Source: a virus
Lineage: Duplodnaviria; Caudoviricetes
IMG/VR virus record: IMGVR_UViG_2933073624_000001
Location: 1 to 64,000 of that record
DNA length: 64,000 nt
Strand: one strand, 5' to 3'
Part shown: piece by piece, positions 46,731-62,063 of the stretch
Layout of the letters: the number at the start of each line of letters is the position of its first letter
Position numbering within the stretch: position 1 is the first letter of the stretch
Notes under the pieces: model-generated
Seen by the model: the letters and a program-made list of their open reading frames with translations, nothing else
Database searches by the model: none
Told to the model about the DNA's origin: nothing
Position numbers and translations under genes: made by a program

Positions 46731-46942
46731 CCGAGTGAAAGGACCGACCCGTGATCGACGAGCGCAAGCGTCCCAGCAGGCCCGCCGGCGAGTGGAGCAC
46801 CAAGCGGTGCGAGAAGTGCGGCGAACAGGTCGAGGTCAGCCGCCACGGACTGCGCACGCTCTGCTCCTGCGACGCGGCCAAGTGACCCCCGGGCAGCGTC
46901 CGGACGACCTCCGTCCGGACGCTGCTCGACCGTCCGGACAAG

Positions 46943-47021
46943 CCCTGACCTGCGGCTTTTCAGTCCGGACACCCGAAACCTCAGCGGGTCACACGCGTTG
47001 GACATAGTGACTACCCACTAA
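46943..47021 (+). promoter_or_regulatory. family-A module copy 1 (degenerate -35)
   Basis: CTGACCTGC...GAAAC-N17-GTTGGACATAGTGACTACCCACTAA. Confidence 0.8.
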
Positions 47022-47064
47022 TCACCCCGGACGGTGTCCGGACAGCCCACAGGAGCTACCAGGG

Positions 47065-48243
47065 ATGACGACCCTCCCCCCTCCCAAGACCCCGACCGTG
47101 GCCATCGCGCGCGTCCTGCGCGGCCTCGGCCTCACCCAAGGACGCGGCTGCGACTTCCGCGTCGAAGGCGACTACCGCAACGGCGAGCGGATCGGCACCT
47201 ACGTCCTGGTCCTCACCCGCCACGCCGACGAGACGATCGCGGCCCACGCCGACGACATCGAGCGCCTGACCGGTGAGTCCGGCTGGGCGTTCCGCGTCTC
47301 CATCCGCTACCTGAGCGACACCGGCCGCCCGACGACCAGCGTCGCCAACTACGGCGACCGCGTCCGCCAAGAGCCCCCGGCCGCGGCACCCGAGCCCGAG
47401 CCGGTCGCGGCGGCCGACCCCGAGCCCACCCCGGACACCGCCGACGAGCCCCCGGCCCCCGAAGTCCCCGAGCCCGGCTCCCCCTCGGCCGGCTACTTCG
47501 CGGGCGCCCGCGTGCGGGCCTGGGGGCGCCAGCGCGCGAACGCGCTTCACTGGTCCGGCTCCCAGGCGTACCTGGTCGCCGCAGCGGCCACCGCCGGACT
47601 CAGCTACGACAAGAACGGAGTGCTCCGCGACCGGCCCCGGCCCGGCTGGACCGGAACCCCCGTCGACGAGACACGCCTCGCCCCGCTCGTGAAGGCCGGG
47701 TTCATCGCCGTCACCGAGCCCTACGGCCCCGGCTCCAAGCAGGTCGGCATCACCCGGGACGGCGCCGAGGCCCTGCACCTGTGGAGGATCTACCGGCCCA
47801 CCCCCGTGGACAAGGACCGCAAGCAGGAACGCGAACCGCTCCGCCCGCTCCTCGGCGGCGAGTACGCCGCTCGCCGCGACCAGGCCGCCGCCGAGGACCA
47901 GCGGCGCCGCGAAGCCGAACGCGAAGCCCTGTACGCCGCCCTGGAGGAGCTGCACGCCTGGGAGGCCTGGGAGGACGCACGCTGGAAGGTGTGGGCCACC
48001 GTCAACGGCATCACCCACCGCCTCGGCCGCCGCGCCCCGTCCGGCTGGATGCCCACCGCCGAGGAGATCGAACTCCACCGCCTGGCCCCCGACGTCGTCG
48101 CCGGCCTCCACGCGGACGCCCTACGGCCCCGGCGCAAGCCCGAACTGCCCAAGACCACCCCGGCCCGGCCGCTCGACGTGACCCCGCTCCCAGCGATCCC
48201 CGCCGAGGCCGAGCAGCTCGACCTCTTCGGCGCCACCGCGTGA
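47065..48243 (+). CDS. hypothetical protein ending in a QLDLF motif
   Basis: AGGAG RBS; C-terminus EQLDLFGATA. Confidence 0.65.
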   Translation: MTTLPPPKTPTVAIARVLRGLGLTQGRGCDFRVEGDYRNGERIGTYVLVLTRHADETIAAHADDIERLTGESGWAFRVSIRYLSDTGRPTTSVANYGDRVRQEPPAAAPEPEPVAAADPEPTPDTADEPPAPEVPEPGSPSAGYFAGARVRAWGRQRANALHWSGSQAYLVAAAATAGLSYDKNGVLRDRPRPGWTGTPVDETRLAPLVKAGFIAVTEPYGPGSKQVGITRDGAEALHLWRIYRPTPVDKDRKQEREPLRPLLGGEYAARRDQAAAEDQRRREAEREALYAALEELHAWEAWEDARWKVWATVNGITHRLGRRAPSGWMPTAEEIELHRLAPDVVAGLHADALRPRRKPELPKTTPARPLDVTPLPAIPAEAEQLDLFGATA

Positions 48244-48311
48244 GCCCCGACACGCGCAAGCGCCCGTCGGCCTCCACTGCGGAGGCGGGCGGGCGCTCGT
48301 CGTCGCGTCCG

Positions 48312-48914
48312 TCAGCTGGCGTCCGTCGCCCTGGCCTTCCGTGCCAGGTCCTTTGCACTCTGGTGGCCGCCGGCGATGTCGTAGACACGCTGGCGCCCGA
48401 CCCCCAGGTGGGGCGCCAGCTCCTCCGCTGTGTGCCCGGCGTCGAGGAGCGCTCGGGTCACGCGCTCCCGGGACTCGCGCAGCCACTTCTGGGCGGCGGG
48501 CGCATCCTTGAGTGTTCGGGTGAGCTTCTTCACCTGTGGGATCGAAGGCAGGCCTTCGTCGAGTTCGGCGAGAGAGGCGAGGGGGCCGAACGACTCGGGG
48601 AGCTGGGTGGGGGCCTGCGCTCCGGCTCCTGCCTTCTTCGCGCGGGCCAGGGCCGCCGAGGTCAGGTGGCCGCTGGCGATGTCGGATACCCGCTGGACGC
48701 TGACCTCCATGTGGGGGGCCAGCTCCTTCCTGGTGACGGTTCCGGAGTCGAGCAGTGCCCGGGTGGTGTCCCTCCGTGTGTCGCGCAGCCATTTCATGAG
48801 GGTCGGCACGTCCTTGAGCGCGCGGGTCAGATCCTTCGCTTGCGAGACGGTGGGCTCGCCGGTCCCGAGAGGGGCGAGCCAGTCGAACGTGTCGGGGAGG
48901 GGTGTGCGGTCCAT
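48312..48914 (-). CDS. tandem-HTH regulator, candidate repressor of family-A promoters
   Basis: Two repeats LTR.LKD.P...KWLR..R...TRALLD.G....ELAPH..V..QRV.DIA.GH; leaderless (TAGGCT-6 nt-ATG). Confidence 0.8.
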   Translation of the reverse strand: MDRTPLPDTFDWLAPLGTGEPTVSQAKDLTRALKDVPTLMKWLRDTRRDTTRALLDSGTVTRKELAPHMEVSVQRVSDIASGHLTSAALARAKKAGAGAQAPTQLPESFGPLASLAELDEGLPSIPQVKKLTRTLKDAPAAQKWLRESRERVTRALLDAGHTAEELAPHLGVGRQRVYDIAGGHQSAKDLARKARATDAS

Positions 48915-48924
48915 ACCCGAAGCC

Positions 48925-48942
48925 TAGTGGGTGGACACTATG
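48925..48942 (-). promoter_or_regulatory. reverse-oriented family-A operator on the tandem-HTH gene promoter
   Basis: Minus strand CATAGTGTCCACCCACTA versus consensus CATAGTGACTACCCACTA. Confidence 0.75.
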
Positions 48943-48982
48943 CCTTCGGGGGTCGCCCTGGCGATGGAGTGTGATAGTGGGG

Positions 48983-49079
48983 CCCTGACCTGCGGCTTTC
49001 TCGAAAAACTCCGATCTCTGGGCGTCAACCCGGAACCACATGGCCCGTACATGCGTTGTATATAGTGACTACCCAATAA
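48983..49079 (+). promoter_or_regulatory. family-A module copy 2
   Basis: GGAAC(49032)-N18-GTT(49055); TATAGTGACTACCCAATAA. Confidence 0.85.
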
Positions 49080-49101
49080 CCTCCCATTCAAGGAGAACGC
49101 A

Positions 49102-49734
49102 ATGACCGCCACCGAGACCATCGCCATGTACACCGCCCGGGCCCTCAGCAAGGCCGCCACTGCCCGCGAGCGGCTGACCGAAGGCCTCGCCAACCGCAGC
49201 GTCCACCTGACCACCCTCATGGAGGCCGTCCTGATCGGCGAGGCCGAGGCCGCCCCCTGGGAGAAGCTCGCGAAGCGCATCGAGCGCCACGGCGTCCGCG
49301 AAGGCCTCGCCCAGCAGCGCGAAGAGGCCCTGGCGATCCTGCTCCAGTACGGCGGCCTCGGCGCGAGCACCAGCCTGGTCGTCAACGCGGCCCGCAACGC
49401 CGAGCACGACGGCCTGCGGCGCTTCCTCGCCCACACCGAGGGCCTCGAAGCCCAGGGCGAGCCCACCCCGGAGCCCGCGCCCGCCACCCCGGAGGCGACC
49501 GAGCTGGAGAAGTGCGGGCTGAGGGTCATCCGGGACACCTTCGTGGACCGCGTCGGCTACAAGAGCCGGGACGGCTGGCGCTACGCCACCAGCGTCCAGG
49601 GCATCAGGCTCGACACGAGCCTCGGCGACCTCCTGATCGGCCGCGGCTGGGCCGAGGTCGACGAGGGCAAGCCGCTCGCCCAGGGCCAGCGAGTCACTCT
49701 CACGGCCATCGGCCGCCACATCCTCGCCGACTGA
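49102..49734 (+). CDS. hypothetical protein
   Basis: AAGGAG RBS directly after the module. Confidence 0.7.
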   Translation: MTATETIAMYTARALSKAATARERLTEGLANRSVHLTTLMEAVLIGEAEAAPWEKLAKRIERHGVREGLAQQREEALAILLQYGGLGASTSLVVNAARNAEHDGLRRFLAHTEGLEAQGEPTPEPAPATPEATELEKCGLRVIRDTFVDRVGYKSRDGWRYATSVQGIRLDTSLGDLLIGRGWAEVDEGKPLAQGQRVTLTAIGRHILAD

Positions 49735-49795
49735 CCACCCCCGCCCCGGGCGGGACCAACCGGCCCCGCCCCGCCCCTCTGTCGAGGAGAACCCC

Positions 49796-50065
49796 GTGGA
49801 CCCCATCACCACCCCCGCCCCGGAGCGCCCCGCCTGGCAGGTCGGCGACTACATCACCTGGCCCGGAAACCCGGACTGCTACCGGCTCGTCCACGTCGGC
49901 CGGTTCGCCATCACCTACGAGGCCCGCGACGGCGTACGCCAGGAGGCGGAGGAGACGGCCCTCCGGACCCTGGCCCAGGACACGGCCGACTGGCGGCCCG
50001 CCACCCCTGAGCAGATCGCCCGGCACCAGCGGCTCTACCGGCCCGCCCCGAGTAACTGGGAGTAG
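49796..50065 (+). CDS. small hypothetical protein
   Basis: GAGGAG RBS. Confidence 0.6.
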   Translation: MDPITTPAPERPAWQVGDYITWPGNPDCYRLVHVGRFAITYEARDGVRQEAEETALRTLAQDTADWRPATPEQIARHQRLYRPAPSNWE

Positions 50066-50074
50066 GCGCACCGC

Positions 50075-50162
50075 CTCTGACCTGCAACTTTCTCCGATCC
50101 CCCGGGATCCTCCCGGAACCACAAGGCCCCCACACGCGTTGTACATAGTGACTACCCACTAA
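50075..50162 (+). promoter_or_regulatory. family-A module copy 3
   Basis: GGAAC(50115)-N18-GTT(50138); CATAGTGACTACCCACTAA. Confidence 0.85.
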
Positions 50163-50188
50163 CTCCACTCCTCACGGAAGGCCCACCC

Positions 50189-50770
50189 ATGTCCGTCCCC
50201 ACCCGCTACGTCATCCCCGCCCGCGACATCCGCGAAGGCGACGTCCTGCGCGGCTACTACCGGCCGGGCATCACCCTCGCCACCGCCGCCCGCCCCGGCG
50301 CCTACGCCGAGGACTGGTCGGACCTCGACCGGCGCCCCGACCTCCTCCCCATCCCCGACCGCGCGGCCCGCCCCGGCCCGGCCGCCTTCGACGAGTACGC
50401 CGTCACGCACATCACCGACGACAGCCCGGTGGTCGTCACCCGCGAGCCGATCTCGTACGTCCGCCGCGGCCACCTGCCCACCCCCGAGCAGAAGGAGGAG
50501 TTCACCGACGCCATCGGCAGGATCGCCGGATACGCGGCGGGCTCCCTCCACAAGACCTTCCCGGACCTCGACCTGGACGAGCTGATCCAGCGGTTCACCG
50601 GACCGGCCGCCTTCAACATGATCGGCACCCGCTACCTCAACGGCCTCCGCCGCGGCCTGACCCCCGCCGAGGCCGCCAGCGAGGCCGGGACCGCCCTGAT
50701 CGACGGCTGGGCCGACGCCCGCCTGGAAGCGCGCGCCCTGCTCAACAGCCAGACGGCCGCCACCGCCTGA
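50189..50770 (+). CDS. hypothetical protein
   Basis: GGAAGG RBS after the module. Confidence 0.65.
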   Translation: MSVPTRYVIPARDIREGDVLRGYYRPGITLATAARPGAYAEDWSDLDRRPDLLPIPDRAARPGPAAFDEYAVTHITDDSPVVVTREPISYVRRGHLPTPEQKEEFTDAIGRIAGYAAGSLHKTFPDLDLDELIQRFTGPAAFNMIGTRYLNGLRRGLTPAEAASEAGTALIDGWADARLEARALLNSQTAATA

Positions 50771-50823
50771 CCCTCACCCCGGGCGGGGCCACCCGGCCCC
50801 GCCCCTCCAAGGAAGGAACCCGC

Positions 50824-51123
50824 GTGACCACCACCGACACCCTGCCCCTGGCCCTCGCGGCCGTCACCCACACCCTCAGGACCGTCACCCCGGACGCCCC
50901 GCTCACCGCCGGCGACCTGGAGGAGATCGCCTTCACCGAGGCCTGGAAGCTCGATGACCCCGAGGCCGGGATCTACGGCCACGACCTCGCGCGCGCCGTC
51001 CTTGAGGCCCTGCCCCCTCTGGCGGCCGGTATCTCCCGGCACCGGTACGCGGTGATGGCGGCCGGTGTCCCCGACTGCCTGATCGCTTCCCCGCCCCTGC
51101 ACCTCGACTGGTCCGCCGCCTGA
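50824..51123 (+). CDS. small hypothetical protein
   Basis: AAGGAAGGA RBS. Confidence 0.6.
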   Translation: MTTTDTLPLALAAVTHTLRTVTPDAPLTAGDLEEIAFTEAWKLDDPEAGIYGHDLARAVLEALPPLAAGISRHRYAVMAAGVPDCLIASPPLHLDWSAA

Positions 51124-51158
51124 CCCGCCCACCCACCACCCGGAAGGAAGGCCACAGC

Positions 51159-54100
51159 ATGGCCGACATCACGATCACCCACACACGGCCCGACGGCACG
51201 ACCCTGGGCGGCTCCAGCAAGGGAGACGGCGTCTACGAGATCGTCCGGCAGCACGGCTTCAAGTACTCCAGGAATGTCGGCATCTACATCCGAGGCTCCC
51301 GCGACAAGGAGGCGCAGCACTGGAGGATCAACGGCGCGGCCGAAGCCCTGCGCGCGGCCGGCCACACGGTCGAGGTCGAGATCAACGAGGAGGACGAGCG
51401 CTCGTTCGCCGAGATCGAGGCCGCCCGCGAGGAACGCGCCGAGGACCGCGCCGAGCGGTTCGCCGACCGCGCGGACCGGGCCTCCGCCGAGTCCAACGCC
51501 CGATACGAGCGGGCAAAGGACATCGGCCGCCGCTTCGAGTTCGGGCAGCCGATCCTCGTCGGCCACCACTCGGAGCGCCGCGCCCGCCGGGACCAGGAGC
51601 GTATGCACGACAACATGCGCAAGTCGATCGAAGAGCAGGACAAGGCCGGGTACTGGTCCGACCGGGCCGAGGCCGCCGGCTCGTACAAGGAGCGCCGGAA
51701 CGACACGTACGTCACCCTGCGGCGCCTGGAGAAGCTGGGCGCCGACCTCCGCAGGCAGCAGCGGTACCACGCGGAAGCTGTCGCGAAAGGCTGCGACTCC
51801 GCCGACCGGCACGCGCGCGAGATCCGGGACCTGGAGAAGGAGATCGCGCACTGGGAGGAGGTCGTCGAGAAGGCGAAGGGGGATGGCGTGAAGGTCTGGG
51901 GCCCGGAGGACTTCGCCCCGGGCGACTACGTCATGTACTACGGCACGTCCTGGTATCAGGTGTCACGGGTCAACCCGAAGACGCTGAGCGTCGCGTGGAA
52001 CCTGCGGCTTGAGCCCAAGGCGGTGATGAGCCTGGAGGACGCCACCGACGGTGGCCGGACCTGGACGCACTCGGCCAGCTACACCAACGTTCATGCCCGC
52101 TGCCCCGAGGAAGCGATGAACGCCTTCCTGGCCGACGGGAAGGTCCCCGGCCGCAAGGCGGCCCACGCCGCCTCGGAGAAGCAGCCAGCGGCAGCGGTAC
52201 GCGAGGCCCAGGCCGCGAAGCCGAAGCCGAAGAAGCCGACCAGCGACCCGAAGGTGCCGAAGAAGCTGCTGGTGGCGTTCCAGCAGCTGGGCACCGTGGC
52301 CGAGGTGACGTGGCTCAACGGCGGCAGCCGCCCGCACAAGGACTTCCAGCAGGTGACGATCGCGCCGCCCGACGGAAAGCAGTTCCCCCGCTCGGTCTGG
52401 TCCCCGGCCCTCCAGGAGGAGTTGGCCCGCATCCTCGGGGAGCAGGGCTACGAGCTGCACGGCAGCGACTGGGAGTGGAACCGCAGCCGACAGGGCTACA
52501 TCCGAGCGCTGAGGCCCAAGCCGCAGAAGACGCCCGAGCCGGAGCAGCCGACCACACCGACCGAGGAGCAGCCGGCTCCGCCCGCCAGCGAAGAGCCCCC
52601 GGCCACCGGCCCGGAGGGGAAGCCGGAGCCGGAGGAGTCGACCGCCCCGGCCGAGGAGCCCCCGGCCGACGAGCCGGGGGAGACCCCGGAAGGGGGCGGA
52701 GAGCCCCAGCAAGGGGGCGAAAACACCGCCCTGACCTGCGATTCTTCCGGATCCACCCGGAACCACAAGATCGCCTCACGCGTTGGTAATAGTGACTACC
52801 CACTAACACCATCCACCCAGGAGGCCCCGGTGACCGAGACCGAAAAGTACGGACGCCCCCTCACCCCTCGCGAGCGCAAGGCCGCCCAAGCGGCCGAGCT
52901 GCGTGAGCGCGCCGCCCAGCGAGAGGAGGTCGAGCGCACGGCCGAACTGGACACGGCCTACCGGGCGTACGTGGACGAGGGCATCGCCATGACCGACGGT
53001 GTTTACGTCCCGCTCGACTTCCAGGCCTGGGCCGCCACCCTGGGCGCCCCCCTGGTTGCAGCCGCGGCCGCCGAAGAGCCGACCGCCGACCAGGAGCAGG
53101 AGACGACCGCGCCCCCCGAGGTCGCCGAGGTCGCCGCCGAGCCCCAGCCGGAGGAGAAGGCCCCGGCCCAGGAGGCGCCCGCCAAGAAGGCTCCGGCCGA
53201 GAAGAGGCCCGCCCGGAAGGCCCCGGCGAAGAAGGCGCCGGCGAAGAAGACCCCGGCCCCGAAGGAGACGGCCGCCCCGCAGAAGGCCGCCGGGCTCAAG
53301 ACCGTCCACAAGCGGGTGCCGGTCGACCGGATCGACCGCGACCCCTCCCAGCCGCGCCAGGTCTTCGACCAGGAGAAGCTGGAGGAACTGGCCGGTTCGA
53401 TGAAGCGGCTCGGCCAGCTCCAGCCGGTCAGCGTCCGCTACGTCCCCTCGACCAAGCGCTACGTGCTCGTCATGGGCGAGCGCCGGTGGCGGGCCGCCCA
53501 GCTCGCCGAGATCGTCGAACTCGACGCGGTCGTTACCCACGGCTTCGAGGAAGGGGACCGCGAGATCCTGGCCCGTCAGGTCGCCGAGAACGTCGGCCGG
53601 GCGGACATGACCCCGATGGAGGAGGCCGAGTCGTTCAAGCGGCTGGTCGACGCCGAGTACACCATCGACCAGGTCTCCGAGATGGTCGGCAAGTCGGCGA
53701 GCTACATCGGCTGGCGCATCGATCTCCTGCGACTGTGCGACTCCGCCCGCGAGGCCGTGAGCAAGGGGCACCTGACCGTCGGCCTCGCCTGGTACGTGTC
53801 CCTGCTCAACACCGACAACCAGATGCGGTTCCTCGTCCGGCACACCCGGGGCGAGTTCAAGAGCGTCCGGGACGCCGAGGCCTTCGCCCAGGCCGCTCGC
53901 GCGGAGGAGAAGCGAGTGGAGGAGCAGGGCTCCTTCTTCGTCCTCTCCGAGGAGGCCGCCACCGACAGGGGCGGGCAGGACGCGCTGCCCGGCTCCCTGG
54001 ACATCCCGGAGTCGGAGCGCGAGAAGATCATGGGCGATCGCGCCAAGCTCGTCGGCCGGATCGACAAGCTGAGCATCGCCGGCGAGATCCTGTCCGAGCT

Positions 54101-54302
54101 GGCGAACGCCGACCCGGAGACCCTGGCGCTCCTGCTCGCCGGTACCCCCGGCGGAGTCCCCGGGCACGCGCAGCGGATCGAGCACCTGCGGGAGCTGACC
54201 CTGCGGGCCACGAAGAACCTCCGCCAGGCCCAGGCCATCGCGGCCGTACGGGCCTCGGGCATTCAGATCGACCCGGAGGCCGTCGCCATGCCCGCCGCAT
54301 AG
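51159..54302 (+). CDS. DUF3560-like domain in one frame with a ParB/Spo0J-like protein (internal start at 52830)
   Basis: FGQPILVGHHSERRARRD; DPSQPRQVFD, GQLQPV, GERRWRAA, ENVGRADMTPMEEA. Confidence 0.85.
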   Translation: MADITITHTRPDGTTLGGSSKGDGVYEIVRQHGFKYSRNVGIYIRGSRDKEAQHWRINGAAEALRAAGHTVEVEINEEDERSFAEIEAAREERAEDRAERFADRADRASAESNARYERAKDIGRRFEFGQPILVGHHSERRARRDQERMHDNMRKSIEEQDKAGYWSDRAEAAGSYKERRNDTYVTLRRLEKLGADLRRQQRYHAEAVAKGCDSADRHAREIRDLEKEIAHWEEVVEKAKGDGVKVWGPEDFAPGDYVMYYGTSWYQVSRVNPKTLSVAWNLRLEPKAVMSLEDATDGGRTWTHSASYTNVHARCPEEAMNAFLADGKVPGRKAAHAASEKQPAAAVREAQAAKPKPKKPTSDPKVPKKLLVAFQQLGTVAEVTWLNGGSRPHKDFQQVTIAPPDGKQFPRSVWSPALQEELARILGEQGYELHGSDWEWNRSRQGYIRALRPKPQKTPEPEQPTTPTEEQPAPPASEEPPATGPEGKPEPEESTAPAEEPPADEPGETPEGGGEPQQGGENTALTCDSSGSTRNHKIASRVGNSDYPLTPSTQEAPVTETEKYGRPLTPRERKAAQAAELRERAAQREEVERTAELDTAYRAYVDEGIAMTDGVYVPLDFQAWAATLGAPLVAAAAAEEPTADQEQETTAPPEVAEVAAEPQPEEKAPAQEAPAKKAPAEKRPARKAPAKKAPAKKTPAPKETAAPQKAAGLKTVHKRVPVDRIDRDPSQPRQVFDQEKLEELAGSMKRLGQLQPVSVRYVPSTKRYVLVMGERRWRAAQLAEIVELDAVVTHGFEEGDREILARQVAENVGRADMTPMEEAESFKRLVDAEYTIDQVSEMVGKSASYIGWRIDLLRLCDSAREAVSKGHLTVGLAWYVSLLNTDNQMRFLVRHTRGEFKSVRDAEAFAQAARAEEKRVEEQGSFFVLSEEAATDRGGQDALPGSLDIPESEREKIMGDRAKLVGRIDKLSIAGEILSELANADPETLALLLAGTPGGVPGHAQRIEHLRELTLRATKNLRQAQAIAAVRASGIQIDPEAVAMPAA
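52729..52806 (+). promoter_or_regulatory. family-A module copy 4, inside the ORF ahead of the ParB start
   Basis: GGAAC(52759)-N18-GTT(52782); AATAGTGACTACCCACTAA; AGGAGG RBS and in-frame GTG at 52830. Confidence 0.85.
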
Positions 54303-54314
54303 TGACTACCCACC
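54298..54314 (+). promoter_or_regulatory. partial family-A operator overlapping the ParB stop codon
   Basis: CATAGTGACTACCCACC; its TAG is the stop codon. Confidence 0.7.
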
Positions 54315-54461
54315 AAGGGGTCGCTCCCGGGAGATGAGCGGCCCCGACCCCCTACCACCCCCCGGGGCCCCGCGGCCGCCACAGCGCCCCTCACGGCCAC
54401 CGCGACAGCCGCCAGGGCCCCGGGCCCCATCCCACCCGTCACGCAACCCCAGGAGGAACCC

Positions 54462-55286
54462 GTGCGCTTCCACCCGACCGTCCTCGCCACCCTCGCCGAC
54501 CCCCGCACCGAGATCCGCGGCGACCTCGTGCGCGTCCCCTTCGAGCTCGACCGCGACGTCTACGAGCGGATGAACCAGACCCTCAAGGACATGGGCGGCC
54601 ACTGGGACGGCCGCAAGGCTGTCCGCGCGCACGTCTTCCCGCACCGGATCGAAGAGCACCTGCGCCAGTGCCTCGCCGCCGGCGAGTACCCCTCCCGCTA
54701 CGACACCGGCTGGTTCCCCACCCCGCCCGCCCTCGCCGTCCAGGTCTGCGACCTGGCGGGCATCCGGACCGGGGACACCGTCCTGGAGCCCTCGGCCGGC
54801 TCCGGCGCCCTCACCGCCGAGATCGCCCGCCGCGGCGGCGTCATCGACGCCGTCGAGTCCGACGAGTTCCGCGCGGACATGCTCCGCCAGCAGGGCGACT
54901 GCCGCCGCGTCTATGCCGCCGACTTCCTCACGCTGGACCCGCTGGAGTACGAGGAGGGCTTCGACCGGGTCGTCATGAACCCGCCCTTCACCGGCGGCCT
55001 GGACCACATCCTTCACGCGCTCCAGTTCATGAAGGACGACGGCGTCCTGGTCTCCATCATGACCGCGGGGCTCATGTGGTGGAGCGACAGGAAGAGCGAG
55101 GACTTCCGCAGCGCGGTCGAGGAGGTCGGCGGCGAGATCGAGGCCCTGCCCGACGACTCGTTCGCCGTCTGCGGCACGAACGTCCGGACCTGCCTGCTGT
55201 TCCTCCCGGGCTACGCCGGGGGGCCGCTCCGGACTCACGACTGGCTGATGCGGCAGCCCCGGCAGCTCGACCTGTTCGCCGCGTAG
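54462..55286 (+). CDS. SAM-dependent amino-type DNA methyltransferase-like protein
   Basis: WFPTP, LEPSAGSG, VMNPPF; ends QLDLFAA. Confidence 0.82.
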   Translation: MRFHPTVLATLADPRTEIRGDLVRVPFELDRDVYERMNQTLKDMGGHWDGRKAVRAHVFPHRIEEHLRQCLAAGEYPSRYDTGWFPTPPALAVQVCDLAGIRTGDTVLEPSAGSGALTAEIARRGGVIDAVESDEFRADMLRQQGDCRRVYAADFLTLDPLEYEEGFDRVVMNPPFTGGLDHILHALQFMKDDGVLVSIMTAGLMWWSDRKSEDFRSAVEEVGGEIEALPDDSFAVCGTNVRTCLLFLPGYAGGPLRTHDWLMRQPRQLDLFAA

Positions 55287-55288
55287 GC

Positions 55289-55376
55289 CTCTGACCTGCA
55301 ACTTTCTCCGATTCCCCGGGATCAACCCGGAACCACACGGGTCTCACCAGCGTTGGACATAGTGACTACCCACTAA
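55289..55376 (+). promoter_or_regulatory. family-A module copy 5
   Basis: GGAAC(55329)-N18-GTT(55352). Confidence 0.85.
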
Positions 55377-55405
55377 CTCAACACCTCACCAGAGAGGCCC
55401 ACACC

Positions 55406-55693
55406 ATGACCAACCAGACCACCCCCACCCCCCTCAACCCCTCCACCCCCACCACCGAAGAGGAGTACGTCTACAACCCCTTCCCCCCGGCCTTCATCTC
55501 CGACGAGCCCATGGAGATCTCCGGCCGGGACATGGGCTACCTCATCCCCTGGATGCAGGCCCAGCTCAAGGCCCAGACCAGGGACCACGACAACTCCGAC
55601 CTGTGCCAGGCCCTCAGCTCGATCCTGCGCCAGGCCAACAAGGTCTACGGCACCGAGTCCGAGACCCGGGAGACCTGCATCTGCTACGGCTGA
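55406..55693 (+). CDS. small hypothetical protein
   Basis: GAGAGG RBS after the module. Confidence 0.6.
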   Translation: MTNQTTPTPLNPSTPTTEEEYVYNPFPPAFISDEPMEISGRDMGYLIPWMQAQLKAQTRDHDNSDLCQALSSILRQANKVYGTESETRETCICYG

Positions 55694-55754
55694 CCGACTC
55701 CGGCCGGGCCACCAGGCCCGGCCGGTACCCCAACCCTGAAAGGAACCGACCCCG

Positions 55755-56192
55755 ATGAGCGAACTCCCCAAGCTCGCCACCTGCACCTACCAGGAGTTCA
55801 AGCCGGACATGGGCACCCCCGTGCGCACCACGGTCGGCCACCCCCGGTTCGCCCTCTCCTACCAGCTCGCCGGCCACGCCCGGCTCGTCACGCCGACCCG
55901 GCCCCTCCTCAAGATCGAGGCCCGCGACGCCTACGAGTTCAGCTACCGGCGCATGCTCGAAGGCCACGTCTTCGGCAACATCCAGCGCGAACTCCTCCGC
56001 ATCGCCGGCGCCTACGACCTGGACAGCCCCGTCGTCCTGCTCTGCTTCGACCGCCTGAACGTCCCGGGCAACTGGTGCCACCGCACCATGTTCGCCGCCT
56101 GGTGGACCGAGCAGACCGGCGACGAGGTCCCCGAACTCGGCGCCCAGCTCAAGGCGGCCCCGACGCCGCCCCCCACCCTGTTCGACTTCTGA
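55755..56192 (+). CDS. DUF488-like protein
   Basis: VVLLCFD......WCHRTM.A.W; ends TLFDF. Confidence 0.65.
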   Translation: MSELPKLATCTYQEFKPDMGTPVRTTVGHPRFALSYQLAGHARLVTPTRPLLKIEARDAYEFSYRRMLEGHVFGNIQRELLRIAGAYDLDSPVVLLCFDRLNVPGNWCHRTMFAAWWTEQTGDEVPELGAQLKAAPTPPPTLFDF

Positions 56193-56278
56193 CCCCACCG
56201 GCCCGGGTGGGCGGGGGCGGGAATCCCCGCCCACCCGGGCCCCAACCGAAACCACCTCGCAACCACAGGAGCACGACC

Positions 56279-57214
56279 ATGCGCGACGAGATGACCGAAA
56301 CCCGAGTGAGCCTGGACGGCATCCTCGGCCCGTACGACTGCAAGCTCGACCTCCACCACCGGTGGAACGGCTGGATGAGCCCCCACTTCACCCTGGACAC
56401 CGTCCGCGAACTGTCCGCCGAGACCATCGCCACCGCCAACGACTACGGCTGGCGCGAGACCGACACGATCCACGTGATCGAGGGCCGGGCCGACAGTCCG
56501 GACACCGTCCACGTCATCGACACCGGCCTGACCTACGAGATCAACGAGGACGGTGACACCGCCCCCCTGGCGATCACCGTACGGATCCCCTGGCGGAAGC
56601 TGGACCGCGGCGGCAAGGCCACGATCGGAAAGCTCACCCCGGACGCCCGCAAGGCCGCCCGTCGATCCAAGCCCGGCGGCCGGGGCGCGGCCCGCGCGGT
56701 CGTCGTCCATGCCCGCTGGATGTACTTCGAGGAGACCGGCCAGGGCGCGGACATCGTCGAGCCCGACACCGAAGGCCTCTTCCCGGTCGGTGGTTTCGAG
56801 TGGTGCTGGTCGATCCACCACTGGTGGTGCGTCTGCGGGGCTGACCGCCGGTGGCACGAGACCGAGTGCCTGTGCGGCCAGACCCGAGACAACCAGCCGC
56901 CCCTCGCGGAGGGAGCCGTCCAGGAAGTCGCCCGCCTCCTGCGCACCCTGGTCCCCAAAGCCACCTCCGCCCTGGTCGACTTCGGCTCGGGCCTCGCCCG
57001 GGTCACCGACGTGTTCGCCGGCGACACCGAAGTGGACATGGCCGACGACACCGGCCCGTTCGACACCGAGACCCTCGGCGAGGCCGACGAGGTCCTGCGC
57101 AAGGCCGTGGACCGGGCCGACTGCCTGAACGACCTGGTCGCCGACTGGGAGCGCATCCCCCACAAGCGGACCCCCCACCTCTACCGGATCGCCTTCCCGG
57201 CCGTCGGCCAGTAG
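56279..57214 (+). CDS. hypothetical protein (N-terminal domain paralogous to 57823..58272)
   Basis: RWNGWMSPHFTLDTV; GLFPVGGFEWCW. Confidence 0.65.
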   Translation: MRDEMTETRVSLDGILGPYDCKLDLHHRWNGWMSPHFTLDTVRELSAETIATANDYGWRETDTIHVIEGRADSPDTVHVIDTGLTYEINEDGDTAPLAITVRIPWRKLDRGGKATIGKLTPDARKAARRSKPGGRGAARAVVVHARWMYFEETGQGADIVEPDTEGLFPVGGFEWCWSIHHWWCVCGADRRWHETECLCGQTRDNQPPLAEGAVQEVARLLRTLVPKATSALVDFGSGLARVTDVFAGDTEVDMADDTGPFDTETLGEADEVLRKAVDRADCLNDLVADWERIPHKRTPHLYRIAFPAVGQ

Positions 57215-57285
57215 CCACCACAGCGGATCTCCCGGGCGATCACCCGGGCCCGAACCCTTCCCGCTCAACGAAACGAGGACGTCTC

Positions 57286-57723
57286 ATGACCGCTCAGCCC
57301 CGCCAGACCTACCCCGTGCCCGACCTTGGCGGCCAGGCACACGAAGCCCTTGAGGCCCTGCGCCTCGCTCAGGAGCGGATCGGCCGTGTGATGGCCGCCG
57401 TCACCGCCGTCGCCGTCGTCGACGTCCTCACCGACCACCACCGGGAAGCCGAGTTCGACGCCGCGCACGCTGAGCTGATCGAGGCGGCCGACGGCTCCCT
57501 GCACGCCACCGGCCGGTACTGGACGGCCGCCGGCGAGGAGAAGGCCCTCGCCGAGGCCCACGGCGACCGCTGGGTGGTGCACGAGATGAACGAGTGGGTG
57601 CCCTACATGGACTACGACAACGAGCACGTCTGGAAGCCCCTCGTGGAGCCCCTGGAGGACCGGAACGGCCAGCGGGTCTACCGCCTCGACCTGCGCAAGG
57701 CCGCAGCCCTGCCCCTCGACTGA
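57286..57723 (+). CDS. hypothetical protein
   Basis: GAGGA RBS. Confidence 0.6.
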   Translation: MTAQPRQTYPVPDLGGQAHEALEALRLAQERIGRVMAAVTAVAVVDVLTDHHREAEFDAAHAELIEAADGSLHATGRYWTAAGEEKALAEAHGDRWVVHEMNEWVPYMDYDNEHVWKPLVEPLEDRNGQRVYRLDLRKAAALPLD

Positions 57724-57822
57724 CCCCCTGACACACCTGGCCCCGGGACGGGCGAGGGCGGGAATCCCCGCCCGCCCCGGGGCCGACCCCTGCCCAGCCG
57801 GAACCCTCGCAAGGAGAAACCG

Positions 57823-58272
57823 ATGATCGAAGTCATGGTGTGCTGCAACGACCGCGACCGCTACCCGGCCTGGATCGACCCCACCGACCACCGCGACGGA
57901 TTCGTGAAGCCCTGGTTCGATCTGGAGACCGTCCAGCGCATCGCAGAGGACAGCCAGGCGGAAGCCGCCGAGTTCGGACACGGCGGCGTCGACACCGTCC
58001 ACGTCATCACCGGCCAGATCGACGGCCAGGACCGGCCGCTGGTCCTGAACATCTGCTGGATGTACCTGGACGGCGAGAAGCACCAGAAGGCTGTTGAGAA
58101 CGTCGAGCGCAACGCGGACGGCCTGTACGCGGTCGGCGGCTACGACTGGAACTGGTACATGCTCGACGACCTGTTGAACCCGGTGATCCCGCCTCGGGTC
58201 GACCCGGCGATCCCGACGCAGGTGAAGCGGGAGATCCTGCCGCCCTTCCCCGGCCAGCGCACCAACGGATGA
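57823..58272 (+). CDS. hypothetical protein (paralog of the N-terminus of 56279..57214)
   Basis: RDGFVKPWFDLETV; GLYAVGGYDWNW. Confidence 0.65.
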   Translation: MIEVMVCCNDRDRYPAWIDPTDHRDGFVKPWFDLETVQRIAEDSQAEAAEFGHGGVDTVHVITGQIDGQDRPLVLNICWMYLDGEKHQKAVENVERNADGLYAVGGYDWNWYMLDDLLNPVIPPRVDPAIPTQVKREILPPFPGQRTNG

Positions 58273-58319
58273 CCCCCACACCCCTCCATCACCCCGACCC
58301 GACCGTACGAGGACGTCAC

Positions 58320-59252
58320 ATGACCATTCAGCCCGTCCAGGCCCCGCCCCTCCTGACCTCCGGTGGCCCACAGGGCCTGTGCGAGGGAGCGCTGATCCTC
58401 ACCCGCCGCGGCATCGTCCCCATCGAGGACATCGCCGCCGGCGAGGAGGTGTTCACCCACCGGCGCCGCTGGCGGCCGGTCGTGGCCGTCACCTCGCAGA
58501 CCGCCCCGACGGTGAAGGTCCACTGCGTCACCCTGCCCGGCGGCCTGCCGGTCACCGCCGACCAGTGGCTGCTCACCCGGAACGCCCGCGTCCTGCTCGA
58601 AAGCGACGCCACCGCAGGGATGTCGAGCGCCCGGTGGACCAAGGCCCGGGATCTGGTCGAAGGCGACCGGGTCGCCTCGCCGCTCGACTTCGGGCAGCCG
58701 CTCCCGCTGCCCGAACTGCCCGCCGCCCTCGCCGGGACCGACCCGGCCGACATCATTCGCATCGCGGCGCAGATGATCGGCCTCAAGGGCAAGGCGGGCA
58801 CGGCCCTGTGCCCGGAGCTGGCCGGCTGGCTGGAAACGCACTTCGGACCGTACGGCGCCGGGCGCCACTTCCCGGCCTGGGCGGTCACGATGCCCGAGGA
58901 GCTTCGCCGAGCCTTCCTCGGCGGCCTGGTCGACCTCTCCCCGGAACGCCAGAAGTGCGCGGTGGCCATGCACTCCAAGAGGTTCATGACCGGCCTGCGG
59001 CTGCTGGTCTGCTCCCTCGGCTACGCCGCCGGGCTCGCCTCCGCCAAGGGGAAGGGAGGAAGCCGGGCGTGGCCGCTGAGCTGGGCGCCGACCGGCGGCC
59101 GGCGCCCCGACTATAACGGGTCGCGGTGGCACTCGGTGGCCCGGGTCGAACGGGGCCCGGTGTCCACGGTGTTCCAGCTGCACGTCATTGAGGACGAGTC
59201 CTGCGTCGCCGACGGCCTCACGGTCGCGGCCCCTCTCCCGCCGGGCAGGTAG
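58320..59252 (+). CDS. stand-alone intein-like protein (Hint plus degenerate LAGLIDADG-type region)
   Basis: GALILTRRGIVPIEDIAAGEEVFTH; W..A.DL..GD; RRAFLGGLVD; VFQLHVIEDES.VADG. Confidence 0.72.
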   Translation: MTIQPVQAPPLLTSGGPQGLCEGALILTRRGIVPIEDIAAGEEVFTHRRRWRPVVAVTSQTAPTVKVHCVTLPGGLPVTADQWLLTRNARVLLESDATAGMSSARWTKARDLVEGDRVASPLDFGQPLPLPELPAALAGTDPADIIRIAAQMIGLKGKAGTALCPELAGWLETHFGPYGAGRHFPAWAVTMPEELRRAFLGGLVDLSPERQKCAVAMHSKRFMTGLRLLVCSLGYAAGLASAKGKGGSRAWPLSWAPTGGRRPDYNGSRWHSVARVERGPVSTVFQLHVIEDESCVADGLTVAAPLPPGR

Positions 59253-59257
59253 CAGGG

Positions 59258-59345
59258 CTCTGACCTGCAACTTTCTCGAAAACCTCGGGGGTGCCCCGGA
59301 ACCACCAAGATCGTTCACGCGTTGTACATAGTGACTACCCACTAA
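59258..59345 (+). promoter_or_regulatory. family-A module copy 6
   Basis: GGAAC(59298)-N18-GTT(59321). Confidence 0.85.
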
Positions 59346-59426
59346 GTCACTGTCCGGCCCGGTGGGCGGAGGCGGGAATCTCCGCCCACCGGGCCAGCAC
59401 CGACCGACCTCGCGAGGAGATCCGGC

Positions 59427-61313
59427 ATGGCCGCCATCGACCCCACATCCCGAGCCTGGGAGGCCTCCTCCCGGGCCGCCAACGCCCCCAGGCGGATCCG
59501 CGCCTACAAGCACGACGGTGGCGACTTGTCCGTCATGGACTGGTTCTGCGGGGCAGGCGGCAGCGGCCAGGGCGCCGAGGCGGTCCCCGGCCTGCGCGTC
59601 TACCTCGCCGCGAACCACTGGAAGCAGGCGATCAAGACCCACCAGATGAACTTCCCCGGAGTGGCCCACTACATGGGCGACATCCGCAAGGCCCCCGTCT
59701 GGGCCTGGCCCACCAGCGACGTGTTCTGGTCCTCGCCGGAATGCACCAACTGGAGTATCGCCAAGGGCAGGAAGCGCTCGTTCGCGAAGGCCGTGCAGGG
59801 CGACCTCATGAGCCTGTACGCGGACGCGGAGGAAGCGAAGTTCAAGACGGGCGCCGACCCCGACAACGAGCCCACGGCCGAAGAGGAGGCCTCGCGCGCC
59901 CTGATGGAGGAGATCCCGCTCTACCTGCGCGGTGTGATCGAGCGCGGCGGCCTGATCAAGGCCGGGGTGGTCGAGAACGTGATCGACGTCCGCGCGTGGG
60001 CCGAGTGGGACGCCTGGCGCGGTGAGTTCCACAAGCTCGGGTACTTCACGAAGCTCGTGGCGCTGAACTCGATGCACGCCGACCCGCGCAGCGTGCACAA
60101 GGCCCCGCAGTCCCGTGACCGGCTCTACCTCGTCTACTGGCACAAGAGCCTGGGGCGCACGCCGGACTGGGACAAGTGGATCCGGCCCCGCGCGTACTGC
60201 CACGGCTGCGACGAGGTCGTGGCCGCCCGCCAGGTCTTCCGCAAGCCCGGCCAGGACATGGGCCGGTACAAGAGCAGCTACGACTACCGGTGCCCCCGGA
60301 AGTCCTGCCGGGCGCTCGTCGAGCCCGACACCCTGCCCGCCGCCGCGGCGATCGACTTCTCGATCAAGGGCACGCCGATCGGCAGCCGGCCCAAGAGCGA
60401 GGAAGCCCCCGAGGGCCTGGCCCCGAACACGATGGCCCGCATCCGCGCGGGCGTCGCCAAGTACTGGCCCAAGCCCGGCGGCCCGGCCGACGAGGACGAC
60501 ACGCTGTTCGGCGACACCGGCCAGAGCGCGGCCAGGACGGCGCCGCTCCTCGTCCCGACCGGCGGGACCTGGCGGAACACCGCCAGCAGCACCGAGGTTC
60601 CGATGCCCACCCGCACGACCGTCGAGAGCGACGGGCTCGTGATCCCCCCGATCCTGATCCCCTGCGAGGGCCGCGAGGGCAAGCAGCCGATGCCGGTCGA
60701 CCAGCCCCTGCGGACCCAGACGACCCGCCTGGAAACGGCCGTCGCCTACGCCCCGTTCGTGGTCCCCATGCGAGGAGGTGGCGACAAGGAGAAGGCCCGG
60801 CACATCAGCCAGCCGCTCCACACCGTCTCGGCCGGCGGCAACCACCACGGCCTGGTCACCGGGCCCGTCCCGCTGGTCATGCGGAACAACACCCCCAAGG
60901 GCGACCCGGCCCAGATGTGCACGACCGCCGGCGAACCGCTGCGGACGATGACGGCGGCCGGGCACCAGTCGCTCATCACCCCCGGGGACGGGCTCCTCGT
61001 CCCGTACTACGGCACCGGCCAGGCCCGGCCGGTCTCCGAGCCGGTCGGCACCCTGCCCACCCGGGACCGGTACGCGCTCCTCGACGCGAACGGCGAGTAC
61101 GACCTGTCCAAGGTGCTTTTCAGGATGCTCCAGCCCAAGGAGATCGGCAGGGCGATGGCCTTCGGTGACGACTACAGGGTCCTCGGGTCGAAGCGCGACC
61201 GGATCAGGCAGTACGGCAACGCGGTCACCCCGAACGTCGCCGAGGTCTTGCTGTGCGCGCTCGTCGAGTGCATCACCGGGGAGCCGATCAGCCGCTACGC
61301 GCTGGCCGCCTGA
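59427..61313 (+). CDS. DNA (cytosine-5)-methyltransferase
   Basis: DWFCGAGG, SPEC, VENV, QSRDR, YGNAVTP; long repetitive variable region. Confidence 0.92.
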   Translation: MAAIDPTSRAWEASSRAANAPRRIRAYKHDGGDLSVMDWFCGAGGSGQGAEAVPGLRVYLAANHWKQAIKTHQMNFPGVAHYMGDIRKAPVWAWPTSDVFWSSPECTNWSIAKGRKRSFAKAVQGDLMSLYADAEEAKFKTGADPDNEPTAEEEASRALMEEIPLYLRGVIERGGLIKAGVVENVIDVRAWAEWDAWRGEFHKLGYFTKLVALNSMHADPRSVHKAPQSRDRLYLVYWHKSLGRTPDWDKWIRPRAYCHGCDEVVAARQVFRKPGQDMGRYKSSYDYRCPRKSCRALVEPDTLPAAAAIDFSIKGTPIGSRPKSEEAPEGLAPNTMARIRAGVAKYWPKPGGPADEDDTLFGDTGQSAARTAPLLVPTGGTWRNTASSTEVPMPTRTTVESDGLVIPPILIPCEGREGKQPMPVDQPLRTQTTRLETAVAYAPFVVPMRGGGDKEKARHISQPLHTVSAGGNHHGLVTGPVPLVMRNNTPKGDPAQMCTTAGEPLRTMTAAGHQSLITPGDGLLVPYYGTGQARPVSEPVGTLPTRDRYALLDANGEYDLSKVLFRMLQPKEIGRAMAFGDDYRVLGSKRDRIRQYGNAVTPNVAEVLLCALVECITGEPISRYALAA

Positions 61314-61351
61314 CCCGAGACCCCGGGGCGGTTCCCAGCGGGCCGCCCCGG

Positions 61352-61439
61352 CTCTGACCTGCAACTTCCCTCGATCTCCCGGGATTCACCCGGAACCACA
61401 AGACCCCCACAAGCGTTGTACATAGTGACTACCCACTAA
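61352..61439 (+). promoter_or_regulatory. family-A module copy 7
   Basis: GGAAC(61392)-N18-GTT(61415). Confidence 0.85.
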
Positions 61440-61462
61440 CTCCTACCCCTCCGGAGGAAGCC

Positions 61463-61981
61463 ATGGCCGACACCGCCACCGCCCGCGCGCACACCACCTC
61501 CGCCCGCGGCCCCATCGTCGTCACCGCCACCATCACCCCCGGCCCGGACTCGTTCACGATCACCGGCGCCCACGCCTACGACACGAGCAGGCACGGCCGC
61601 ATCCAGGGCGGCCTGACCCGGGGCGGGTTCTCCTTCCCGGCCGGCGAGGTCGACGTCCGCATCGACAAGCACTGGAACCTGACCGACACCCTCGACCTCG
61701 CGGTCGCCTGCGCCATCCTCGCCGCCGGCGGCCAGATCGACCCCGGCATCCTGGACCGCGTCGTCCTCCTCGGCGGCATGGGCTGGACTGGCCACCTCGA
61801 CCCCGTCATGGGCGTCGCTGACTGCGCCCACATGGCCCGGCAGGGCGACCGGCGCACCATCCTGGTCCCCGCCGAGCAGTCCATGCGCGTCCACCGGCTC
61901 GACTTCGGCCTCGACGTCGTCGGCGTCCGCAGCGTCCGCGAGGCCGCCGACTTCCTCAACCGCCAGGCCGACCGGGCCTGA
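61463..61981 (+). CDS. stand-alone YifB/ComM N-terminal-like domain (no AAA+)
   Basis: GFSFP...LDLAVACAILAA...LLG.MG..G.L.PV.G...ILVP...VVGV.S..E. Confidence 0.68.
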   Translation: MADTATARAHTTSARGPIVVTATITPGPDSFTITGAHAYDTSRHGRIQGGLTRGGFSFPAGEVDVRIDKHWNLTDTLDLAVACAILAAGGQIDPGILDRVVLLGGMGWTGHLDPVMGVADCAHMARQGDRRTILVPAEQSMRVHRLDFGLDVVGVRSVREAADFLNRQADRA

Positions 61982-62063
61982 CCTGCGGCTTTCCTCGAAA
62001 CCCCCGGAGTCAACCCGGAACCCCGCGGGTAGTCACGCGTTGGACATAGTGACTACCCACTAA
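61977..62063 (+). promoter_or_regulatory. family-A module copy 8; its TGA is the upstream gene's stop
   Basis: GGAAC(62017)-N17-GTT(62039). Confidence 0.85.

Follow-up and report, generated by a model that had tools for sequence, protein, structure and literature searches.

A repeated putative promoter-operator module array and its candidate repressor in a provirus of the Streptomycetaceae

The array and its composite module

In this study, we analyzed a 64,000-nucleotide (nt) stretch, hereafter the window, of the IMG/VR record IMGVR_UViG_2933073624_000001, which as a whole spans 100,642 bp, is listed as a provirus and is estimated by CheckV to be 100% complete. Between 46.9 and 62.1 kb it carries a gene array punctuated by eight full repeated modules of ~85 nt, one lone operator and one reversed operator (Table 1). 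A sequence-only reading of this DNA had described such copies as promoters of the extracytoplasmic function (ECF) type combined with a palindromic operator, and had proposed a dedicated repressor for them. The eight full copies and the lone operator are real, and the full copies start within 2 nt of where that reading had placed them; its observation is confirmed, and its interpretation is partly supported.

First, a search for the 16-mer TAGTGACTACCCACTA with up to three mismatches revealed 10 sites in the window, compared with 0.05 expected from shuffled sequences. All 10 lay within 46.9-62.1 kb, and none was found outside the array in the whole record. Nine were on the plus strand (47005, 49063, 50146, 52790, 54300, 55360, 59329, 61423 and 62047) and one was on the minus strand (48925-48940); nine of the 10 were co-directional with the genes. 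Alignment showed that eight of the nine plus-strand palindromes form the 3' end of a longer unit, the site at 54300 having no promoter.

Second, this unit reads, from 5' to 3', CTGACCTGC, a gap, the -35 element ACCCGGAACC, a spacer, (G)CGTTG, 3 nt and ATAGTGACTACCCACTAA, which in the window takes the form CTGACCTGC, N28 (or N18), CGGAAC, N17/16, CGTTG, N3, ATAGTGnnnACCCACTAA. The upstream box, consisting of CTGACCTGC and a T-rich tract, opens each full module; CTGACCTGC was observed nine times (0.95 expected), eight of them within modules, and GGAAC-N16/17-CGTTG eight times (0.27 expected), seven of them within modules. The -35 element was GGAAC in seven of the eight full modules and GAAAC in the copy at 46945. 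Six copies have a 17-nt gap from GGAAC to CGTTG and the other two a 16-nt gap; the N18 and N17 proposed earlier were therefore off by one. The operator, a 16-bp site (TAGTGnnn.ACCCACTA) with the two-fold core TAGTG-N6-CACTA, begins 3 nt past the -10 element. Where a gene directly follows a module, the start codon lay only 21-29 nt beyond the operator in five of six cases.

Two further claims about the layout needed adjustment. An inverted repeat of the CCGG type does sit upstream of the -35 element, but its columns are weakly conserved. The copies were also said to follow stop codons, with two overlapping one; the overlaps were found (TGA at 61979-61981, within the box of module 8, ends open reading frame (ORF) 61463-61981, and TAG at 54300-54302, within the lone operator, ends ORF 51159-54302), but the module at 52731 follows no stop codon.

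Table 1. Coordinates of the array features in the window
Feature	Position	Strand	Description
Module 1	46945..47021	+	Ahead of ORF 47065-48243; box CTGACCTGC, -35 GAAAC, N16, CGTTG, operator
Regulator gene	48312..48914	-	200 amino acids (aa), two tandem copies of a ~95-aa helix-turn-helix (HTH) protein; candidate repressor
Autoregulatory site (predicted)	48921..48940	-	Palindrome TAGTGTCCACCCACTA at 48925-48940
Module 2	48985..49079	+	Ahead of ORF 49102-49734; box-to--35 gap 37 nt; one operator change (CCCAATA)
Module 3	50077..50162	+	Ahead of ORF 50189-50770; GGAAC-N17-CGTTG
DUF3560-ParB ORF	51159..54302	+	1047 codons open; ends with the TAG of the lone operator
Module 4	52731..52806	+	In frame within the DUF3560-ParB ORF; box-to--35 gap 18 nt
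Lone operator ATAGTGACTACCCACCAA	54299..54316	+	Without promoter boxes; lies at the ParB ORF stop; 145 nt ahead of methyltransferase ORF 54462-55286
Module 5	55291..55376	+	Ahead of ORFs 55406-55693, 55755-56192 and subsequent ORFs
Hint-domain ORF	58269..59252	+	Pfam Hint_2; this element only; insertion stops at the 5' edge of module 6
Module 6	59260..59345	+	Ahead of C5 cytosine methyltransferase ORF 59427-61313; strong leader hairpin 59357-59402
Module 7	61354..61439	+	Ahead of short ChlI-like ORF 61463-61981
Cassette-like segment, short ChlI-like gene	61440..61975	+	Separates modules 7 and 8; shared with L034
Module 8	61978..62063	+	Ahead of HTH_ParB-only ORF 62085-62477; GGAAC-N16-CGTTG

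Conservation and gene turnover in related elements

To place the modules in a wider frame, we scanned sequence collections for ATAGTGNNNACCCACTAA. Among the matches listed, multi-copy clusters occurred in four IMG/VR proviruses and 11 Streptomyces, Kitasatospora and Embleya genomes and were confined to high-GC Streptomycetaceae DNA; many single chance matches in unrelated low-GC contigs were disregarded. At least 13 elements exist, and these 13, once duplicates had been merged, formed the study set. They belong to a lineage of ~95-110-kb phage-plasmids and prophages of Streptomyces, Kitasatospora and Embleya, and two of them sit within complete chromosomes. Searches with the module and the regulator found no cultured member of the lineage among 50,697 phage records and one plasmid carrying both among 72,556. 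The four operator 16-mers were not found in the literature searched, and the literature on Streptomyces phage early promoters, conserved inverted repeats (CIRs) and phage-plasmids yielded nothing on this system.

A structured-pattern search of the window and 20 loci from the 13 elements gave 53 modules (51 distinct) with a shared layout, in which conserved boxes are separated by spacers of variable sequence but constant length, as the sequence-only reading had noted for the window. The gap between the -10 element and the palindrome was 3 nt in all 53 modules, and the -35/-10 spacer was 16 nt in 36 modules and 17 nt in 17. The gap between the box and the -35 element was 28 nt in 25 modules, 29-31 nt in 15, 18-19 nt in 12 (exactly 18 nt in 10) and 37 nt in one. 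Column information peaked at the box, the -35 and -10 elements and the palindrome, with valleys in between; such a pattern, constant in length and free in sequence, is expected if proteins contact the DNA. The right half of the operator was constant, whereas its left half varied at three positions, and the fully symmetric form TAGTGGGT.ACCCACTA was present in relatives. The -35 element was GGTAC in 36 of the 53 modules. Within an element, the -35 type and the three central operator bases tended to be uniform: GGAAC/ACT in 7/7 modules of the window, GGTAC/TCC in 8/8 of strain A1136, and GGTAC in 7/7 of K. cinereorecta (centre TCC in six, CCC in one). Either recombination homogenises the modules, or the modules track factors encoded by the element. 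Some elements carried both GGAAC and GGTAC forms, and therefore one cell must read both.

When gene families were compared slot by slot, a conserved backbone was interspersed with variable small genes between modules, and most modules occupied the same position across the 13 elements; genes of family F5 were found in different slots in different elements. At the Hint-domain ORF, relatives L024 and L129 pass from window position 58199 to 59260 and 59259, respectively, over 41-42 nt of their own sequence, and 59260 is the first base of module 6. Segment 61440-61975 is absent from L082, L103 and L142, whose single module aligns with both modules 7 and 8 of the window. Two gene gains or losses thus end exactly at modules, which is the repeat-bounded variation in gene content that the sequence-only reading had named as a test of its proposal. 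With RecT present, ordinary homologous recombination suffices for such indels at module edges.

The element itself is best understood through pSITFR-21c, a circular plasmid of Streptomyces sp. ITFR-21 (103.5 kb) that is collinear with 5.4-99.6 kb of the record at 65-80% DNA identity and encodes a major capsid protein, a minor head protein, an amidase, a lambda-exonuclease, RecT and a pair of divergent HTH regulators. By homology to this annotated plasmid, the exonuclease/RecT pair named by the sequence-only reading is indeed present. Virion, lysis and recombination genes (via pSITFR-21c) and the occurrence of relatives as both plasmids and prophages fit a phage-plasmid or temperate tailed phage. 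Collinearity with a plasmid bearing virion genes therefore indicates a ~95-kb temperate Streptomycetaceae phage or phage-plasmid, of which the array would be the middle region, with a recombination and small-gene region on one side and virion genes on the other. As read from the relative's annotation, the divergent HTH pair lies at the left end of the element, separate from the array regulator, and therefore the latter need not be the lysogeny repressor. Homology to pSITFR-21c begins at ~5.4 kb, close to the plasmid's HTH pair; positions 1-5400, which open with a thiolase-like ORF (1-1188) and have no match in the plasmid, are probably host flank or cargo. Positions 23000-36000 also largely lack a pSITFR-21c counterpart, show GC content down to 0.55 at 24-26 kb and contain the sole GGAAC-N17-CGTTG match outside the array (25586); this stretch is likely an insertion or accessory island.

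A Pfam scan of 20 array ORFs (E <= 0.01) recovered the methyltransferase, ParB and DUF3560 genes listed by the sequence-only reading, but DUF488, also on its list, was not found among them. In PHROGs, the nine non-regulator array proteins scanned matched only families of 'unknown function', including the product of ORF 47065-48243 (phrog_15616), for which no sequence relative was found in the PDB. ORF 51159-54302 combines an N-terminal DUF3560 domain, an acidic and proline-rich linker, the in-frame module 4, and C-terminal ParB_N and HTH_ParB domains. It is longer than 990 codons in six elements and is annotated as one NCBI coding sequence in pSITFR-21c; third-position GC content dips across module 4 and the frame remains open. 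After the module come an AGGAGG and a GTG (52829) from which a separate ParB-like protein might be started, and both this protein and the fusion protein may be made. The other array genes include several small ORFs of unknown function, the Hint-domain ORF, the C5 cytosine methyltransferase, an ORF with HTH_ParB only (130 aa), a small-domain methyltransferase-like ORF whose matches are weak and all under the Pfam cut-offs, and ChlI-like genes represented by one short ORF and a full-length paralogue.

Several other sequence features were observed in and around the array. In the linker ahead of the ParB domain, a tandem array with a 15-nt period (53126-53288) encodes a lysine/alanine/proline-rich repeat with a weak Pfam match to the histone-like HC2. 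There are 30 copies of the 8-bp palindrome GTCCGGAC in the record, where ~4 would be expected, and they fall into six tight clusters (46898-47043, 11127-11177, 22643-22739, 32647-32676 and 45141-45225, and G000 81449-81602). One cluster surrounds module 1, and relatives carry copies of TGTCCGGACA around their first module. These sites are probably the operator set of another regulator, and module 1 would then be under dual control. Finally, a long GC-rich hairpin (GGGTGGGCGG..GCGGGAATCCCCGC..) is present three times (56202-56247, 57743-57788 and 59357-59402), with folding free energies of -41 to -46 kcal/mol; two copies come after genes, and the third is in the leader that separates module 6 from the C5 methyltransferase gene, an arrangement shared by four relatives. 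It may act as a terminator or attenuator.

The regulator, the promoter class and competing readings

The gene encoded divergently inside the array (48312..48914, minus strand) yields a protein with a marginal Pfam HTH_3 match, which is above the gathering score (25.6 bits versus a cut-off of 23, E 1.3e-5). Profile comparison with the PDB gave only weak matches to sigma-region-4 and Lac-headpiece HTH motifs (E 0.1-0.5); the match to the 'CAP repeat' protein 8vd6 (E 1.8e-10) was discarded because it added up five weak matches to a protein made of repeats. A single-sequence AlphaFold2 (AF2) model was poor (pLDDT 55.5), and a model based on a 20-row alignment (pLDDT 90.7, pTM 0.78) was used instead. 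In the latter, each half of the regulator comprises a short helix, a ~35-residue helix, the HTH and a C-terminal helix. Structure searches found no solved relative beyond generic coiled coils and HTH pieces: the best Foldseek match in the PDB had E 0.56, and the wide VIA-align search peaked at Z 6.7 with generic antiparallel coiled coils. The family is rare, with 17 representative clusters at E <= 0.001 among 1.84 billion proteins.

In all 11 of the 11 elements compared, the palindrome occupies positions -26 to -11 (-27 in one element) from the regulator ATG, and the TA that ends it opens a TAnnnT hexamer, which lies at -12 in ten elements and at -13 in one. In the window, this TA forms the first two bases of the -10 hexamer TAGGCT (48921-48926), and the ATG at 48914 follows 6 nt on, which implies a leaderless regulator mRNA. 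Such geometry is that predicted for a leaderless housekeeping-type promoter overlapped by the operator. The sequence-only reading had seen a reversed palindrome on a leaderless promoter at this place in the window; the arrangement is shared by all 11 elements and supports that call. By position, then, one site lies on both the target promoters and the regulator's own promoter; an operator overlapping the leaderless promoter supports autoregulation. Single palindromes without a module were also observed just 5' of the ATG of unrelated small genes in other Streptomyces DNA (L116:5833-5850 and L067:4377-4394), and the design of an operator with a leaderless start may have a wider use.

Eight relatives encode the regulator as a single protein of 89-99 aa, whereas that of the window (200 aa) and that of pSITFR-21c (184 aa) consist of two tandem copies, with halves that align with the single-domain relatives. 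In the regulator tree, the window halves were sisters (support 95/93), the plasmid halves grouped with L024/L085 (100/99), and a topology with a common origin of the two tandem forms was rejected (p-AU 0.0003). Therefore, the same fusion happened twice independently. The tandem HTH form that the sequence-only reading had described is real in this element, but it is a derived state, the ancestral regulator being a single protein of ~95 aa. A dimer acting on a two-fold site would be the simplest reason for the repeated fusion.

As for the promoter class, a passage of PMC10012870 gives the Corynebacterium glutamicum sigmaH/sigmaE consensus as GGAAC-N17-18-cGTT and states that mycobacterial sigmaE promoters are the same. 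The -35/-10 form of the window (GGAAC-N17-CGTT) is identical to this consensus. The 'AAC' core expected of an ECF -35 element is present, with GGAAC in seven of the eight full modules, and we rated the -10 spacing, 17 nt in most copies and 16 nt in the remaining two, as agreeing with the 17-18 nt expected. In three host genomes of GGAAC-type elements, CGGAAC-N17-CGTTG occurred outside the prophage 7, 9 and 5 times, compared with 2, 1 and 1 times for a reversed control; therefore, promoters of this form probably exist in these hosts. The matches include an orthologous pair, CGGAACTGACT..CGTTG in two Streptomyces genomes (L217:1501-1528 and L236:1501-1528), which is conserved ~240-260 nt upstream of the same ~248-aa ORF and is a candidate host promoter of the module's class. 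Going by its printed sequence, we tentatively take the product of this ORF to be a ribosome hibernation factor.

Other candidates for the promoter type and its sigma factor fared poorly. A sigma-70 reading of the modules was rejected: CATAGT resembles a -10 element, but no -35 element is conserved 17 nt upstream, and GGAAC is 23-24 nt away. A simple consensus scan of 46.5-63 kb returned no sigma-70-type promoter, although it also misses the regulator's own promoter. A sigma factor encoded by the element at 33641-34180 (minus strand) was rejected as well, its TIGR02937 match being weak (E 5e-6, below the cut-off) and the product being a small protein with a region-4-like HTH only. Small minus-strand ORFs at 33551-33900 and 32779-33594 were observed to have a C-terminal sigma-region-4-like HTH (TIGR02937 E 5e-6, below the cut-off); the former has a counterpart in pSITFR-21c, and neither is a full sigma factor.

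On balance, we lean towards a reading, built on sequence comparison, in which an autoregulated repressor gates a battery of ECF-type promoters. Each array gene or short operon would be headed by one composite switch, whose upstream box is possibly a site for an activator or for the C-terminal domain of the RNA polymerase alpha subunit. RNA polymerase with a group-4 host sigma factor (ECF-type, similar to sigmaE, sigmaH or sigmaR) would initiate within the left half of the operator; from the promoter class we infer a start 5-9 nt after CGTT, which would place the operator over about +1 to +17, a repressing position. The small HTH protein would bind the operator as a dimer, in this element as a fused single-chain pseudo-dimer, and block initiation, and bound sites may also stop read-through from upstream, as at the promoter-less 54300. 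Being made from a predicted leaderless housekeeping-type promoter whose -10 element overlaps the palindrome, the regulator would hold its own level steady. When it is absent or titrated, as on entry into a naive cell or during replication, the whole battery could fire together, namely two DNA methyltransferases, the DUF3560-ParB protein, the small ParB-HTH and ChlI-like proteins, and proteins of unknown function. An identical ~85 bp at each slot would allow recombination between modules to add or remove genes without loss of control.

Several points weigh against this reading. First, no sigma gene was found in this record and four related records (no Sigma70_r2 match and no TIGR02937 match above the cut-off), nor does a cognate sigma/anti-sigma pair lie near the array; therefore, the sigma factor must be a host one or an unrecognised factor. 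Second, sister elements often have GGTAC with a 16-nt spacer, which departs from the 'AAC' rule for ECF -35 elements, and in three host genomes all matches to CGGTAC-N16-VGTTAG (7/7, 2/2 and 8/8) were within the prophage, so that it is not the promoter of a host regulon in those three genomes. The earlier assignment to the ECF class therefore holds for the -35/-10 match and not for the sigma factor or the GGTAC variant; the label describes form only, and a helper protein may be needed at the conserved upstream box. Third, conservation at the constrained positions of the pattern used to collect the 53 modules arises partly by construction. The 18-nt gap class consists mostly of the orthologous module inside the DUF3560-ParB ORF, and therefore the gap difference of one helical turn rests on few events; the 18- and 28-nt classes probably reflect only about two ancestral events. 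Finally, the array also encodes ParB-type HTH proteins, by which a 16-bp palindrome could be bound, and the family that best matches the regulator in PHROGs carries the name 'late transcriptional activator' (E 5.5e-10), over ~50 HTH residues only.

A broader version of the repressor reading, which we offer as a tentative possibility, is that the modules are standard 'expression sockets' of a phage lineage. Through RecT-type recombination between them, genes for DNA modification and anti-defence could be acquired, lost or relocated, and newcomers would arrive pre-wired to the promoter class and the repressor. GGTAC would then be a phage-private promoter, maybe read through an unrecognised phage factor on the CTGACCTGC box, and the repressor would twice have become a single-chain dimer, freeing its halves to follow an asymmetric operator.

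The ParB-type proteins lead to an alternative that we consider unlikely, in which a KorB-like global repressor, either the ParB portion of ORF 51159-54302 or the HTH_ParB protein of 130 aa, binds the palindromes and the small HTH protein is otherwise employed. A 16-bp palindrome is the usual format of parS sites bound by ParB or KorB. ParB_N and HTH_ParB domains are present in the array, and the lone palindrome lies at the end of the ParB ORF both here and, at the matching position, in five relatives (L001, L024, L071, L142 and L108), as parS often lies near parB. However, the palindrome overlaps the -10 element of the small HTH gene in 11/11 elements, which is a classic sign of autoregulation; that this protein was fused in tandem twice independently fits a dimer on a two-fold site; and the array ORFs scanned showed no parA beside the ParB ORF.

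The PHROG name points to another improbable alternative, namely that the small HTH protein activates middle or late genes and that the modules are activator-dependent phage promoters, with GGAAC/GGTAC and CGTT contacted by a phage-modified polymerase. The privacy of the GGTAC-type motif to the prophage in 3/3 host genomes, the position of the array between recombination and virion genes, and the conserved upstream box, which suggests that an extra factor is needed, are consistent with this view. On the other hand, a protein bound directly 3' of the -10-like box would hinder the polymerase, the 21-29 nt between the operator and most start codons leave no room for a downstream promoter, the match covers the HTH only, and GGAAC-N17-CGTTG in the window is a perfect ECF form of the host type.

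It is highly improbable that the repeats are primarily recombination sites of an integron-like cassette system with secondary promoter activity: relatives do differ in gene content at module edges and F5 genes do change slots, but neither an integrase nor a recombinase domain was found in the 20 array ORFs scanned, most modules keep their position across the 13 elements, and ordinary homologous recombination, with RecT present, is enough for the indels. The modules also stand 5' of genes and have promoter-like boxes, unlike attC sites, which come after cassettes that lack promoters. That the unit acts as RNA, as a shared 5' leader hairpin or a processing site for mRNA stability or translation, is also very unlikely, because the 5-bp hairpin formed by the palindrome when transcribed at the 5' end (-4.1 kcal/mol, z = -3.5) is opposed by an RNAalifold consensus (22 of the 53 modules, most with the 28-nt gap) of only five pairs with 0 compensatory changes and a covariation term of 0.05, by the reversed site on the regulator's promoter, and by a box, -35 and -10 element that are fixed in spacing and lack a pairing partner.

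To our knowledge, gene regulation is known in detail for very few Streptomyces phages. If the repressor reading is true, the array would offer actinomycete genetics a compact, portable promoter-operator unit with a 95-aa repressor, and it would show that a phage has taken over a stress-sigma promoter class to drive genes for DNA modification. It would also provide a natural case, seen twice, of a dimeric repressor turned single-chain, and a clear view of repeated control elements guiding gene turnover in phages.

Comparison with known systems

The actinobacterial sigmaE/sigmaH (sigmaR-type) regulons share the GGAAC-N17-CGTT form with the modules, and similar sites are present in the host genomes of relatives; they differ in that the array has no nearby cognate sigma/anti-sigma genes and sister elements use GGTAC-N16. 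An integron array would have a neighbouring tyrosine integrase and, at the 3' ends of its promoter-less cassettes, attC sites; the repeats here lie 5' of genes and carry promoter-like boxes, with no integrase domain among the 20 array ORFs.

Repeats bearing sites for a small repressor are described ahead of anti-restriction and establishment genes of the IncN plasmids pKM101/R46, where ArdK represses itself (the CUP/ArdK system, in a passage of PMC6289460 citing Delver and Belogurov 1997). The likeness lies in conserved upstream repeats and one small, self-repressing repressor encoded by the element. That system, however, belongs to a Gram-negative conjugative plasmid, with other sequences, another protein and sigma-70 promoters, whereas the present one belongs to a phage or phage-plasmid with virion genes.

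Stoperators of cluster A mycobacteriophages (L5 gp71-type), according to a section of PMC9283540, are asymmetric sites bound by a single polypeptide with two domains. In both systems many copies of a short site share one orientation; stoperators lie at promoters or, to stop elongation, between genes, and the promoter-less site at 54300 may be compared with the latter. In contrast with asymmetric 13-14-bp sites spread genome-wide, the sites here have a palindromic core and form one 15-kb array. The regulator appears unrelated, by a Pfam comparison (generic HTH families only) and not a direct one with L5 gp71, and its two-domain form would have arisen by tandem duplication of a dimer-forming protein.

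Finally, the Streptomyces phage phiC31 is also temperate and has early genes punctuated by repeated promoters and palindromes. Its repeats reportedly serve as early promoters, and its CIRs are said to be sites for the c repressor. In its early region (AJ006589), we found about nine near-identical promoter-like repeats that are not of the sigma-70 type (CCGGGTTGCCGACTCCCTTAC) and about eight palindromes (CCTACTCACGTGAGTAGG), with no sequence likeness to the module repeats. The promoter repeat and the palindrome are separate in phiC31, whereas here they form one fixed composite; its annotated repressor ORF is 2,052 nt long, compared with a regulator of 95-200 aa here, and the promoters of the array look like the ECF class. 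By these comparisons, the array would be a variant of the same principle known from phiC31, from stoperators and from the IncN CUP elements.

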